A DNA stretch of 64,000 bases from an uncultured Candidatus Saccharibacteria bacterium (GTDB taxonomy: Bacteria; Patescibacteriota; Minisyncoccia; Phycocordibacterales; Phycocordibacteraceae), in contig CAZXAN010000003.1 in NCBI GenBank assembly GCA_964638585.1, positions 30,047-94,046 on the forward strand. Direction: 5' to 3'. This document shows, in pieces, positions 2,973 through 63,074 of the stretch. The stretch's first letter is position 1. The number at the start of each line of letters is the position of its first letter. Both the position numbers and the translations under genes were made by a program. Below the pieces are notes generated by a model. It searched no databases. It was given only the letters and a program-made list of their open reading frames with translations, and had not been told where the DNA came from.

Positions 2973-4178
2973 TCAAATAGAGCCGGCGAGGTTATAGATA
3001 GGCATGAGCACAGCAGCGAGCAACACTCCTACCCCTAGGCCGAGCGCGACTATCATTATCGGCTCTATAAGCCCTACCAGGGTATCAACCGCGTTTGTCA
3101 CTTCACGGCCATAAAACTTTGCCAATGTGCTAAGTATCTTACCCAATTCTCCGGTCTCTTCGCCAACCTTTGTCATAGCGACCATAATCCCAGGTATCTC
3201 TGGGTGCTTGCCAAAAGCGTCTGATATAGACGATCCGCCCTTAACAGCCGTGCTGACGTCAGATAGCACGGCCTCGTATGCTGCGTTGCCAACGACAGAA
3301 GCGGTGATCTCTATTGCCGCAACAACCGACACACCAGAGAGAAGCATGGTTGAGAAGTTGTCTGAAATACGCGAGAGGTAAAGTTTTTTATATAGGTCAC
3401 CAACATAAGGGATTGAGAGTTTTAAGCTATCTAGGACAAGTTTCCCATTTTTAGTCTTTCTTAGTTGCCACACGTAAAAACCGACGGCGATCATAGCAAT
3501 GAGTACGAAAATGCCGTACTGAACAAGGAAGTTGGACAGCCCTATAACAATCTTCGTGTAGATCGGTACTTCTTGTCCTGAATCAACAAGAATCGCACTT
3601 ATCTTAGGTATCACAAGCGTCAACATAAGCGCCATAACGCTGAAAAAGACGGCAACGACGAAGATCGGATAGATGAGTGCGTTCTCGGCCTTACTCATAA
3701 TATCGTAGGTACGATCAAGGTAGTCGGCAAGATAGTTAAATATTTCAGACAGCTTGCCTGACTCCTCTCCTGCACGGACCATATTTACGTAGAAGTCACC
3801 GAAGACGTTCGGATGTCGTGCAAGAGCCGAGCTAATAGGACTACCACCCTGAATGTCGTCACCGACACTAGAGATAATCGCTGCTAGTTGTTTATTCTCA
3901 ATCTCGCTTGCGAGTAAGCGGAATATGCGCAGAGTAGACACCTGAGCCTCAAACAGTGTCGCTATCTGTCTAGATAGGATGACAACGTCTTTATTGGATA
4001 TTCTGTTGAAAAACGTGATGTCTATTTTAAAGATTGATTTCTTGTCGGCAGATTCTATAACAGAGACTATGAGACTTCGCCTCTGGAGCGCAGACACAGC
4101 AACTTCTTGAGATGGGGCTTCAATAGTCCCATCCCTCTCGTGTCCATCTTGGTCAATCGCGTGGTATTTAAAAAGCAT
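2973..4178 (-). CDS. pilC: Type IV pilus assembly platform protein (GspF/PilC family)
   Basis: 401 aa with three TM segments and two GspF-like cytoplasmic repeats. Confidence 0.85.
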   Translation of the reverse strand: MLFKYHAIDQDGHERDGTIEAPSQEVAVSALQRRSLIVSVIESADKKSIFKIDITFFNRISNKDVVILSRQIATLFEAQVSTLRIFRLLASEIENKQLAAIISSVGDDIQGGSPISSALARHPNVFGDFYVNMVRAGEESGKLSEIFNYLADYLDRTYDIMSKAENALIYPIFVVAVFFSVMALMLTLVIPKISAILVDSGQEVPIYTKIVIGLSNFLVQYGIFVLIAMIAVGFYVWQLRKTKNGKLVLDSLKLSIPYVGDLYKKLYLSRISDNFSTMLLSGVSVVAAIEITASVVGNAAYEAVLSDVSTAVKGGSSISDAFGKHPEIPGIMVAMTKVGEETGELGKILSTLAKFYGREVTNAVDTLVGLIEPIMIVALGLGVGVLLAAVLMPIYNLAGSI

Positions 4179-4205
4179 ATTAGGCGCTAGGCTCTAGGCA
4201 CTAGC
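4179..4205. repeat. CTAG-heptamer repeat (ATTAGGCGCTAGGCTCTAGGCACTAG), left arm of an inverted pair
   Basis: Contains TTAGGCGCTAGGCTCTAG. The identical 18-mer occurs reverse-complemented at 4571-4588. Confidence 0.8.
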
Positions 4206-4547
4206 TTTATTAATCATAACATTAAGCATACGCATAACTTCGTTTAATAACACCTCCACCTGGTGAAAATCCAATTTCTGAATTTTAGGTAATTGCTTCG
4301 CTATCTCTATCTGTGTCTCCAACTCTCCACCAGAACCAAATGCAACGCGTAGAAAGTAAACAAATTCTTTAGTTGATCCCCTCAGTTTGCCTTCTGCGAT
4401 ATTAGATGGGATGGAAACTGCCGCACGTTGCATTTGTGAAGCAAGTCCATAACGTTCCTCTGGTGGGAACTGACCGGTCAATGTATACGTATGACTCGCG
4501 AGTTGTATCGATTTCTGCCAGACGACAAGATCTCGAAATGTTTGCAT
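4194..4547 (-). CDS. Four-helix-bundle protein of the '23S rRNA intervening-sequence protein' type
   Basis: 117-aa protein with the YGLASQMQRAAVSIPSNIAEG...FL..A.GS..ELETQ pattern characteristic of this family. Confidence 0.75.
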   Translation of the reverse strand: MQTFRDLVVWQKSIQLASHTYTLTGQFPPEERYGLASQMQRAAVSIPSNIAEGKLRGSTKEFVYFLRVAFGSGGELETQIEIAKQLPKIQKLDFHQVEVLLNEVMRMLNVMINKASA

Positions 4548-4570
4548 GTTTATAAATTTGTATGTGTCAA

Positions 4571-4603
4571 CTAGAGCCTAGCGCCTAATGCCTAGTCGGC
4601 TAG
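4571..4603. repeat. CTAG-heptamer repeat, right arm (inverted)
   Basis: CTAGAGCCTAGCGCCTAATGCCTAGTCGGCTAG. Its reverse complement contains the same 18-mer as 4180-4197. Confidence 0.8.
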
Positions 4604-5692
4604 TTAAAGGTAGTGCTCAAACGTCTTCGGGTCCATCGCATATTCATAGGCATGTTCAACTGTCACTTCTCCCCTCTTAACAAGCTCTGATAGAGATCGG
4701 TCCATGTCAATCATGCCCTCTTGCGAAGATGTCTGGATGACAGCGTTAATCTCGTGCGTCCTCGCGTCGCGGATAAGAGTGCTGACGGCGTTGTTATTGA
4801 TTAGAAGTTCGTATGCTGGGATGAGACCGCCAGATATTCTTGGGATCAGTCTTTGCGAGAAGATGCCTGCAAGCGAGCCTGCGAGCTGTACACGCACCTG
4901 CGCTTGCTGTTCTGAAGGGAACATGTCAATAATACGGTCTATTGTTTGTGCTGCATTATTTGTGTGGAGCGTAGAAAAGACGAGGTGACCAGTCTCGGCG
5001 GCTGTCACAGCCGAAGAAATAGTCTCGTAGTCACGCATCTCGCCAACCATGATAACGTCAACGTCTTCTCTGAAAGCAGACTGAAGAGCGGTATGGAAGT
5101 CTGGCGCGTCTATGTGAATCTCGCGCTGGTGTATAAGAGATTTTTTAGAAGTGAATAAGTACTCAACAGGGTCTTCAATAGTCAAAATGTGCTCTGCACG
5201 CGACTCATTTATAGAATCAATCATAGTAGCAAGAGTTGTAGACTTGCCCTGCCCTACTGGCCCCACGACAAGGAAGAACCCCTGTTCGCGTTGAGTGAAC
5301 ACTTCAAGAATCGGTGGCAAGTTTAGCTCTGTTAATGTACGTATTGAATGCGGTATAAGCCGTAGTGCGAGCGCTGTAGTCCCTTGCACTCTATATCCAT
5401 TAACGCGGAAACGTGCATCAGCACCATGCGCAAGAGATACGTCAATTGTTTGATCCTTTTGAAAATGGTCCCATCTGTCTTCTGGGACAATGCTCTTAAG
5501 CATGCTCTCAGTCTCTTCTTCTGTAAACGCAGGGTATTTAGAAATTGGCAAAAGAGCTCCGGAGACACGAATCATAGGCGGACCACCCACAAATACGTGG
5601 ATGTCTGACCCTCCTTCTTTAATAACTATATCCAGAAGCTCGGCGAGATGTTTGTTGGTAGACATAGTTTTATGATTACTTAACTGCGCCAA
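4604..5692 (-). CDS. pilT: Twitching-motility ATPase
   Basis: 362 aa with Walker A GPVGQGKST and PilT-type motifs. Confidence 0.9.
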   Translation of the reverse strand: MAQLSNHKTMSTNKHLAELLDIVIKEGGSDIHVFVGGPPMIRVSGALLPISKYPAFTEEETESMLKSIVPEDRWDHFQKDQTIDVSLAHGADARFRVNGYRVQGTTALALRLIPHSIRTLTELNLPPILEVFTQREQGFFLVVGPVGQGKSTTLATMIDSINESRAEHILTIEDPVEYLFTSKKSLIHQREIHIDAPDFHTALQSAFREDVDVIMVGEMRDYETISSAVTAAETGHLVFSTLHTNNAAQTIDRIIDMFPSEQQAQVRVQLAGSLAGIFSQRLIPRISGGLIPAYELLINNNAVSTLIRDARTHEINAVIQTSSQEGMIDMDRSLSELVKRGEVTVEHAYEYAMDPKTFEHYL

Positions 5693-6119
5693 TTGTTTTG
5701 ACCTCTATAGTGCGCAATGTCTCTGCAAGCACTTCAGAAGGGATAGCGGACGCTTTTATAATGTACCCGTCTGCAGAAAGTTTCTTGGCCTTCTCAATAT
5801 CAGAATCTTGCCCTTGGTTTGAGAGTATTATAATCTTCGTTCCTTTAGCTAGATCATCTTTGCGTATCATTTCAAGAGTCTCAAAACCGCCCATGCCAGG
5901 CATAATTAGATCAAGCAAAATAGCGTCCGGTGATTTTGAACCTTCTTTCTTAAGCTCTGCAATAATCTCTTCGCCACCACCAAACACTTTAACGTCATGG
6001 CCGGCATTTCTGAACTTTACTGCGTATAAGTCTAGGAGAAACCTGTCATCATCAACCAAATATATTCTGTATGCCATTGCTTTCAGTATACTATGTCCAG
6101 AATCAAGCAGTTTCGTCAA
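5676..6119 (-). CDS. Stand-alone response-regulator receiver domain protein (CheY/PilH-like)
   Basis: REC-domain signature residues (DD...D...K) present; 147 aa. Confidence 0.8.
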   Translation of the reverse strand: MTKLLDSGHSILKAMAYRIYLVDDDRFLLDLYAVKFRNAGHDVKVFGGGEEIIAELKKEGSKSPDAILLDLIMPGMGGFETLEMIRKDDLAKGTKIIILSNQGQDSDIEKAKKLSADGYIIKASAIPSEVLAETLRTIEVKTIGAVK

Positions 6120-23139: not shown

Positions 23140-23165
23140 CCTAGTGCCTAGAGCCTAACGCCTAT
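23140..23165. repeat. CTAG-heptamer repeat (CCTAGTGCCTAGAGCCTAACGCCTAT)
   Basis: Shares the 17-mer TAGGCTCTAGGCACTAG (as reverse complement) with 4187-4203. Overlaps the csoR stop codon. Confidence 0.75.
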
Positions 23166-29612: not shown

Positions 29613-29633
29613 TCAGTAGTACCGAAAGCAAAA

Positions 29634-29662
29634 AGCCGGGCAATGCCCGGCTTTTTTATTTT
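29634..29662. terminator. Intrinsic terminator AGCCGGGCA-ATG-CCCGGCT plus a T-run (bidirectional, also follows groEL)
   Basis: Perfect 8-bp GC stem followed by TTTTTTATTTT. Confidence 0.8.
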
Positions 29663-29666
29663 ACTA

Positions 29667-29688
29667 AAGCCTAACGCCTAGAGCCTAG
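29667..29688. repeat. CTAG-heptamer repeat (AAAGCCTAACGCCTAGAGCCTAG) abutting the groEL stop
   Basis: Same heptamer family, in inverted orientation relative to the copy at 31330-31363. Confidence 0.7.
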
Positions 29689-29689
29689 T

Positions 29690-31363
<1,674 letters not shown>

Positions 31364-52182: not shown

Positions 52183-52206
52183 AAAGCCTAGTGTCTAAAG
52201 CCTAAT
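52183..52206. repeat. CTAG-heptamer repeat (AAAGCCTAGTGTCTAAAGCCTAAT)
   Basis: Same family, a degenerate copy between rpmI and rplT. Confidence 0.6.
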
Positions 52207-63045: not shown

Positions 63046-63074
63046 ATTAGGCACTAGGCTCTAGGTCTTTAGCC
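63046..63074. repeat. CTAG-heptamer repeat (ATTAGGCACTAGGCTCTAGGTCTTTAGCC) between rpsQ and rplN
   Basis: Overlaps the rpsQ stop codon. Confidence 0.7.

Follow-up and report, generated by a model that had tools for sequence, protein, structure and literature searches.

A putative intervening-sequence-type cassette with a four-helix-bundle gene at the pilT-pilC junction of a Candidate Phyla Radiation bacterium

Introduction

We describe here a 425-nt segment, positions 4179-4603, that lies between the stop codon of pilT and the start codon of pilC in a 64-kb stretch of DNA from an uncultured Candidatus Saccharibacteria bacterium (contig CAZXAN010000003.1, positions 30,047 to 94,046; the whole of these 64,000 nt is referred to as the window). 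The segment holds a gene for a 117-aa four-helix-bundle (4HB) protein between two inverted arrays of tandem heptamers, and comparison with related genomes shows that it is a discrete insertion. By analogy with the intervening sequences (IVSs) of 23S rRNA it is, on balance, probably an IVS-type cassette inserted in the pilus operon, whose two arrays would pair in the transcript and allow ribonuclease III (RNase III) to cut the mRNA. A survey of homologous loci showed the two-array architecture to be typical both of PF05635 genes as a family and of the 23S rRNA IVSs that bear an open reading frame (ORF), and this family-wide pattern is a more interesting result than the single locus.

ORF-containing IVSs of 23S rRNA occur in Leptospira, Coxiella burnetii, Xanthomonas, and Azospirillum. 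To our knowledge, the function and origin of the rRNA IVSs and of the very common S23p proteins have been debated since the early 1990s.

Organization of the cassette

The cassette and its two neighbors are read from the minus strand and are given below in the order of the mRNA.

4604..5665, minus strand: pilT, type IVa pilus retraction ATPase of the PilT/PilU type, 353 aa (TIGR01420, E 3e-128)
4571..4603, minus strand: 5' heptamer array, read on the mRNA as CUAGCCG ACUAGGC AUUAGGC GCUAGGC UCUAG
4548..4570, minus strand: 23-nt spacer from the 5' arm to the ATG of the 4HB gene, without a Shine-Dalgarno-like motif or a predicted promoter-like site
4194..4547, minus strand: 4HB gene, 117 aa, with profile matches to PF05635 (23S_rRNA_IVP) and TIGR02436
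4179..4205, minus strand: 3' heptamer array, read on the mRNA as GCUAGUG CCUAGAG CCUAGCG CCUAAU
2973..4178, minus strand: pilC, T2SSF platform protein (PF00482, E 7e-53)

The initial annotation of the window, which was made from the sequence alone, placed a 117-aa four-helix-bundle gene between pilT and pilC, and the matches to PF05635, TIGR02436, TIGR01420, and T2SSF bear this out. The limits of the cassette are set by the two pilus genes. The pilT gene runs from an ATG at 5665 to a TAA at 4604-4606, and its homologues are also 353 aa long and align over residues 1-353. The ATG of pilC is at 4176-4178; residue 1 is conserved and the tblastn alignments to homologues begin there. The 5' array begins immediately past the pilT stop and the 3' array ends 0-1 nt ahead of the pilC ATG. 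The gap of about 15 nt previously described between the arm and this ATG does not exist, as the arm ends at 4179.

The same annotation reported that the gene is bracketed by a perfect inverted 18-mer. This 18-mer, TTAGGCGCTAGGCTCTAG, occurs at 4180-4197 (plus strand) and at 4571-4588 (minus strand) with 0 mismatches, and a repeat search extended the pair to 19 nt, 100% complementary, at 4179-4197 and 4571-4589 with 373 nt between the arms. The 18-mer does not belong to any longer duplication. The repeat is real but it is not unique: when up to 3 mismatches are allowed, TTAGGCGCTAGGCTCTAG has 9 matches in the window versus 0.04 expected, and the arms are heptamer arrays that belong to a wider intergenic class. 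On the mRNA the inverted tandem heptamers read UAGGCNN upstream and NNGCCUA downstream. A 7-nt period shifts the reading frame from one unit to the next, so that UAG or UAA occurs in all three frames of each array. The final three codons of the 4HB gene and its UAG stop (4194-4196, within the arm) are encoded by the 3' array, and both spacers flanking the gene are taken up by arrays. The G+C content of the cassette is 42.4% compared to 46-47% in the neighboring genes.

A promoter and terminator scan found no promoter-like or terminator-like site at the edges of the cassette; a TTGACA adjoins the 5' arm but lacks a properly spaced -10 box. A Shine-Dalgarno-like 4-mer is present at just 10 of the 51 large ORFs of the window, so that its absence before the 4HB gene and pilC is uninformative. 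The initial annotation proposed that the arms would form a stem around the ORF. In agreement with this, the arms are paired in the minimum free energy fold of the 471-nt predicted transcript, and a fold of the arms only is predicted at -42 kcal/mol (z -5.7).

Comparison with related pilT-pilC junctions

Homologues of PilT assign the source of the window to Candidatus Kaiserbacteria/Paceibacterota, which belong to the Candidate Phyla Radiation (CPR). In 13 species-representative genomes (PilT 61-85% identical) the gap between pilT and pilC is 2-27 nt and contains neither a 4HB gene nor arrays, and a protein database search gave the same picture for the three PilT relatives that are nearest (90, 87, and 86% identity). 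The roughly 425-bp segment, which the initial annotation regarded as a cassette, is therefore missing from 16 orthologous junctions in all. The usual junction reads TAA-CT-ATG or TAA-CCT-ATG, and in the window it reads TAA-CT, the cassette, and T-ATG. As judged from these alignments the 425-nt segment is shown to be a discrete insertion, and since the 16 junctions lack both the 4HB gene and the arrays, the arrays came in together with the gene. The only sequence common to both edges that could represent a target-site duplication is TAA, which is found as the stop codon of pilT and again where the 3' array ends.

One further lineage, L192 (4HB protein 88% and PilC 80.5% identical), also has the cassette at pilT-pilC with an identical left edge, TAA-CTAGC. 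The cassette is thus sporadic among relatives, with 16 orthologous junctions lacking it and L192 carrying it.

Two relatives have ORFs of 147 and 208 aa at the pilT-pilC junction without arrays (L013, 4135-4578, and L015, 1989-2615). They were considered as 4HB cassettes and ruled out, as the ORFs are unrelated to 4HB and no arrays are present. The site tolerates insertions, because it holds unrelated ORFs in L013 and L015, and the pilT-pilC junction appears to be an insertion hot spot. Additionally, the relatives L176 (4066-4090) and L007 (11063-11089) have AT-rich, partly palindromic pilT-pilC spacers of 25-27 nt, TATTTAAATATGTAAACATTTAAAT and AATATTTAAATATTTAAATGTTTATAT. On the other side of pilT, the interval from pilB to pilT holds a gene for a response-regulator receiver (5676-6119 in the window), a position that is conserved in all Kaiserbacteria loci inspected.

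The four-helix-bundle protein

The 117-aa protein matches PF05635 with E 2e-35 and 121.6 bits (cut-off 33.8) and TIGR02436 with E 1e-33 and 115.4 bits (cut-off 24). The RxxxSxxxNxxE motif of the four-helix-bundle family (PMC3936711) is present in the translation as R-AAV-S-IPS-N-IA-E. The closest solved relative by sequence is XCC0516 (PDB 2GSC, E 3.4e-22, residues 7-113), which is described as a homopentamer (Lin et al. 2006, as cited in PMC4990558). Comparison with homologues gave dN of 0.11-0.16 with saturated dS, and a dN/dS of ~0.05 where computable; at the level of codon substitutions, the gene is shown to be under purifying selection. A database search found the exact 117-aa protein only at the pilT-pilC locus, the window has no second 4HB copy, and the PADLOC defence-system models gave no match.

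A second operon junction

The closest 4HB homologues (77-85% identity) come from other Kaiserbacteria, in which the gene lies in a type IV secretion system (T4SS)-like operon between a TraC-like gene and the gene for a VirB4/TraG-like ATPase. The same two arrays flank the gene at this other junction. In every case the first unit of a (UAGGCNN)3 array forms the stop codon of the TraC-like gene, and a (NNGCCUA)3 array encodes the C-terminus of the 4HB protein (KASA-stop) and ends 3-13 nt before the next ATG. The two arrays flanking the cassette are the sole in-phase heptamer clusters in the 8-kb loci, and the arms-only folds are predicted at -37 to -42 kcal/mol (z -4.8 to -6.4). Inverted arms are therefore conserved around close homologues at another junction. 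No T4SS-like PrgI/TraC/VirB4 locus was found in the window.

At several of these loci a variable, cargo-like extra ORF is found within the arrays, upstream of the 4HB gene. These ORFs encode proteins of 130-132 aa of unknown type or with a DUF5680 or SET domain.

L086, 3607-3999: extra ORF
L089, 3113-3577: extra ORF
L093, 3433-3963: extra ORF
L193, 2594-2992: extra ORF
L194, 2606-2998: extra ORF

The initial annotation suggested that the cassette could be mobile and pointed to solo copies of the repeat. By sequence comparison the cassette is mobile insofar as it has been gained sporadically and at different junctions, and solo arrays do occur in the window.

Survey of the protein family

The survey covered 80 loci from metagenomes, with 4HB homologues that are 47-85% identical. 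Each gene was scored by the best ungapped inverted repeat between the 120 nt upstream and the stop region, with a threshold of 12, and other genes from the same loci served as controls. Tandem heptamer arrays are present both upstream and downstream in most of the 80 loci. A score of at least 12 was reached by 51 of 75 4HB genes and by 1 of 92 control genes (medians 14 and 7; Fisher 4e-23), so that the inverted arms are a property of most family members. Inverted pairs were found at 50/71 loci compared to direct pairs at 4/71. The heptamer varies by lineage (TAGGCNN, TAGCTNN, TAGGTNN, CAGGTGT, GAAGGKT, CGGTTNT, CAGATRT, TAAGGCN, GGAGATA, and others) and the arms remain complementary. Variant units are in mirrored order between the arms at 38 of 47 loci when compared to unit-permuted controls (Wilcoxon p 1e-7, in a test with a mild selection bias).

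The 4HB genes are co-directional with their upstream neighbor in 57/62 cases and with their downstream neighbor in 55/66, and the median gaps of 45 nt upstream and 32 nt downstream are largely filled by arrays. None of the 40 metagenome 4HB loci scanned with Rfam has an rRNA context; two tRNAs were the only matches. The build is also present in cultured organisms; cassettes on plasmids of cyanobacteria and Riemerella are listed below with their contexts and heptamers.

Nostoc edaphicum plasmid: between nrd genes, GTAGGGA / TCCCTAC
Picosynechococcus plasmid: cas10-4HB-cmr3, GGAGATA
Anabaena sp. 90 plasmid: cas6-4HB-cas4, GGTGACA
Stanieria plasmid: flanked by a hypothetical gene and a putative transposase gene that lie on the other strand, GGCAGAA
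Geminocystis plasmid: flanked by genes for an AAA ATPase and a ParB-family protein, AAGGGAA
Riemerella plasmid: past an accessory gene for iron-sulfur cluster assembly, AAGGTTY

In three cyanobacterial plasmid loci (L186, L188, and L183) 4HB cassettes with arrays lie inside cas operons (cas10-4HB-cmr3 and cas6-4HB-cas4). The presence of 4HB genes in cas loci has already been described (PMC3936711), and the published association may come from cassette insertion and not from a Cas function. The upstream flank of a 4HB gene on a Gemmatirosa plasmid (L184, 1031-1113) has arrays with a period of ~8, CTGCCCTC, with sub-threshold Rfam matches to miRNA precursors; these are most likely chance matches to a long hairpin.

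The heptamer at other sites

Five further arrays of the cassette heptamer are present in the window, each in a short spacer between co-directional genes.

23141..23165, minus strand: solo array in the spacer from a CsoR-like gene to the gene for a copper ATPase, UAGGC on the mRNA
29664..29690, minus strand: array immediately past the groEL stop, UAGGC on the mRNA
31338..31362, plus strand: array in the groES-groEL spacer, GCCUA on the mRNA, ending 13 nt before the groEL ATG
52186..52205, plus strand: degenerate array at the rpmI/rplT junction, GCCUA on the mRNA, ending 14 nt before the rplT ATG
63047..63064, plus strand: solo array between rpsQ and rplN, GCCUA, forming the rpsQ stop and ending 8 nt before the rplN ATG

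The form that reads GCCUA on the mRNA ends 0-14 nt upstream of start codons (pilC, groEL, rplT, and rplN), and the form that reads UAGGC lies past the stop codons of pilT, the csoR-like gene, and groEL. The groEL gene is itself bracketed by an inverted pair (29664-29690 and 31338-31362) with a polarity opposite to that of the 4HB cassette, GCCUA first and UAGGC last. Past the groEL array, at ~29625-29660, there is a G+C-rich hairpin with T-runs on either side.

In a Parcubacteria genome (L018, 6355-6437 and 9915-9985) there are two ORF-less hairpins consisting of (UAGGCNN)3, a 16-nt loop, and (CCUAAAG)3 followed by UAUC-AUG, one directly ahead of pilT and one ahead of another gene. These look like an ORF-less counterpart of the cassette, comparable to the ORF-less rRNA IVSs. 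Other heptamers (ACCTTAT-like, CTTGCAA, CTCTAAT-like, and AGTTGAA-like) are found at groES/groEL junctions or groEL 3' ends with no 4HB gene near in the CPR genomes L007 (1526-1561), L078 (2324-2429), and L134 (~890-950).

Proposed mechanism and alternatives

The cassette would be a promoterless unit, composed of a 5' UAGGCNN array, the 4HB gene, and a 3' NNGCCUA array, that is placed between the pilT stop and the pilC start and is presumably co-transcribed with both genes. In the transcript the arrays would pair to give a stem of ~19 bp (in related cassettes ~25-30 bp, interrupted by single mismatches) that would enclose the 4HB ORF and place the pilT stop beside the pilC start. If the rRNA IVSs are a guide, this stem would be a substrate of RNase III, and the operon mRNA would be cut at the junction. 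The arrays would halt any incoming ribosome in all frames, and the start region of pilC would be held in the stem until cleavage or unwinding. As the 3' arm extends as far as the AUG of pilC, initiation there would need the stem to be unwound. Translation of pilC would then rely on ribosomes that end at the 4HB stop, 15 nt upstream in the arm, and open the stem. Such a relay would supplant the tight pilT-pilC coupling of relatives, in which the gap is 2-6 nt.

A number of observations weigh against this processing of the mRNA. Both RNase III cleavage and co-transcription of the cassette are steps that we infer, and a six-frame translation of the window gave no RNase III signature, which is uninformative at 64 kb. 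The arms of L192 are imperfect, so the 19/19 match is a state of the window lineage and the perfect 19 bp are particular to it. Across the survey the arm mismatches comprise 53 G.U and 54 A.C pairs with no excess of G.U; sense-strand RNA pairing is therefore not favored over DNA-level symmetry. At many loci pairing is confined to the 5-nt cores and leaves out the two variable positions, and the mirrored order of the units is to be read with the selection bias given above. Some junctions that have no 4HB gene carry heptamer arrays too. The inverted arrangement itself has exceptions: in L183 (Pseudanabaena pPg_01) the 4HB gene between cas6 and cas4 is flanked by direct arrays, with ~16 copies of AAAGCTA upstream (1040-1200) and ~10 copies of AAAGCCA downstream (1561-1660), and two 4HB copies next to transposases in Nostoc PCC 7120 have a downstream array only.

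Several of these points would also fit arrays that act as the DNA-level ends of a non-autonomous mobile cassette, with the RNA stem as a by-product. The ends could be terminal or subterminal repeats for a recombinase or transposase encoded elsewhere, or single-stranded DNA hairpins like those of attC or the IS200/IS605 ends. The unit was gained whole with both arrays, two different operon junctions are occupied in related genomes, and the cargo ORFs within the arrays beside the 4HB gene (130 aa, DUF5680, and SET domain) are variable. The lack of a G.U excess points the same way, and the inverted orientation and mirrored unit order suit a DNA symmetry equally well. Many homologues are on ~1-kb contigs, which hints at assembly breaks. 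However, no recombinase or transposase lies in or beside the cassette at the CPR loci inspected, the edges have at most TAA in common with no clear target-site duplication, and the exact gene was found as one copy, always at the same locus. Additionally, the IVS relatives are demonstrably processed as RNA (PMC4990558). We hold this explanation to be unlikely as the main role of the arrays; a DNA-level role in mobility is a live rival all the same, since it is compatible with an RNA role and does not exclude one.

It is also conceivable, and we judge it less likely still, that the arrays are putative binding sites of a pentameric 4HB protein, which would autoregulate through its own flanks and have the solo arrays as further targets. 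The result would be a regulon, post-transcriptional or at the level of DNA, over groES/groEL, rpsQ/rplN, rplT, and the copper ATPase. The solo arrays of the window carry the cassette heptamer and lie 0-14 nt before starts or directly past stops, and the protein is under strong purifying selection. Avd, a homologue with the four-helix-bundle fold, binds RNA and a reverse transcriptase. Arrays of 3-5 or more units would suit a homopentamer as cited for XCC0516 (PMC4990558), and heptamer arrays have been reported in cyanobacteria and Bacteroidota, groups that have 4HB genes here (PMC4679880). Against such binding, the array after groEL in L134 is built of a different heptamer from the flanks of the 4HB gene of L134 itself, a single-strand RNA binder would meet one orientation only, and co-variation of protein and heptamer is inseparable from shared descent.

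A coincidental bracket, in which an ordinary small gene happens to have generic intergenic repeats on either side, would be consistent with the cassette heptamer in five other spacers of the window and with CPR operon junctions that hold arrays and no 4HB gene, but is extremely improbable given that orthologous junctions lack both arrays and gene, that close homologues at another junction are flanked by the same two arrays, that 51/75 4HB loci compared to 1/92 controls have the inverted repeat, and that the 8-kb loci of relatives hold in-phase arrays only at the cassette flanks.

Significance

The 4HB ORFs of rRNA IVSs, the 4HB genes of cas loci (PMC3936711), and heptamer arrays in other phyla (PMC4679880) are already known. 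In the literature searched we found neither a link between 4HB/S23p genes and flanking inverted heptamer arrays nor a description of IVS-type cassettes at mRNA operon junctions, and absence there is not proof. The present locus and the survey show that the IVS architecture, a 4HB ORF enclosed by inverted heptamer arrays, is not tied to rRNA. Operon junctions in the mRNA of CPR bacteria, cyanobacteria, Bacteroidota, and other groups have it as well. The present locus makes the debated function testable through RNase III cleavage of a defined mRNA stem, a translational relay, and binding of the heptamers by the 4HB protein. A link to the heptamer repeats known from intergenic regions of other phyla is suggested as well. 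For annotation, 4HB genes in secretion, pilus, and cas operons would be inserted cassettes and not components of these systems.

A broader and tentative proposal, which we consider doubtful at present, is that 4HB genes with inverted heptamer arrays are one widespread cassette class for any transcribed spacer, with the 4HB pentamer as the trans-acting partner of the arrays. If true, this class spans operon junctions, cas loci, and rRNA helices, and the ORF-bearing 23S IVS is the special case that was noticed first. The intergenic heptamer repeats (TAACTGA, STRR-like, and CPR arrays) would then be ORF-less relatives or targets of the 4HB-array system.

Comparison with known systems

Avd, the accessory protein of diversity-generating retroelements, has a homologous four-helix-bundle fold and gave a weak match. 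The scores are far under the family cut-offs, with PF22296 at 25.3 bits (cut-off 40), NF033474 at 21.4 (cut-off 80), and phrog_3206 at E 2e-5. In contrast to the retroelements, the 4HB gene has no adjoining reverse transcriptase and no pair of template and variable repeats; the called neighbors are all pilus genes.

Integron cassettes resemble the 4HB cassette in their promoterless co-directional ORF, in the imperfect palindromic bounds, and in the variable cargo ORFs found at one site across genomes. They differ in that each 4HB cassette has two arrays compared to one attC and that the 4HB cassettes are scattered in ordinary operons; no integrase-like gene or attI was found among the called neighbors of the 4HB cassette. 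The initial annotation offered an element like a miniature inverted-repeat transposable element (MITE) as one possibility. Short inverted termini, an intergenic site, and solo or partial copies elsewhere are shared with MITEs and with repetitive extragenic palindromes and bacterial interspersed mosaic elements (REP/BIME). The fit to a MITE is poor, as the cassette holds a gene for a conserved protein, has tandem heptamers and not unique terminal inverted repeats at its ends, and neither a clear target-site duplication nor a multi-copy set of the whole unit was seen.

The STRR sequences of cyanobacteria are intergenic tandem heptamer repeats. Like the cassette arrays, intergenic heptamers form 2-6 units in spacers, are oriented to the downstream gene, often end only a few nt from a start codon, and have stop codons within. 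The TAACTGA arrays of Beggiatoaceae, cyanobacteria, and Bacteroidetes are intergenic and end ~1 nt before start codons (PMC4679880). The heptamer sequence is different, and the cassette arrays are inverted pairs around a 4HB gene; the terms 'helix bundle', '23S', and 'intervening sequence' occur zero times in that paper (PMC4679880).

The closest likeness proposed in the initial annotation, an IVS-like build within a protein-coding operon, agrees with the ORF-bearing IVSs of Azospirillum and Coxiella (PMC4990558). The Azospirillum lipoferum plasmid match is a bacterial large subunit rRNA (Rfam RF02541, 899 bits) in which inverted GACAGAG/GACGGAK heptamer arrays enclose a 4HB ORF. In Coxiella burnetii three tandem GACAGAT heptamers lie just upstream of the S23p start, and the IVS is excised by RNase III with a cut at the start of the first GACAGAT repeat (PMC4990558). 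Insertions in CPR rRNA sometimes encode a four-helix-bundle domain (bioRxiv 10.1101/2024.02.27.582315). Both the IVSs and the cassette have a PF05635 ORF of ~120 aa in a loop closed by complementary termini, with tandem heptamers at the ORF flanks in Coxiella (PMC4990558), Azospirillum, and the window. Both are sporadic among relatives, and the G+C content is below that of the surroundings in the cassette and in the Coxiella IVS (PMC4990558). The two differ in location, as IVSs occupy helix 25 or 45 of 23S rRNA whereas the cassette occupies an intercistronic spacer of a protein-coding operon; Rfam found one tRNA and no rRNA in the window. Excision by RNase III is known for the IVS and is proposed by analogy for the cassette. 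Finally, the ORF of the Coxiella IVS is reported to be decaying and untranslated, whereas the ORF of the cassette is intact and evolves under purifying selection.

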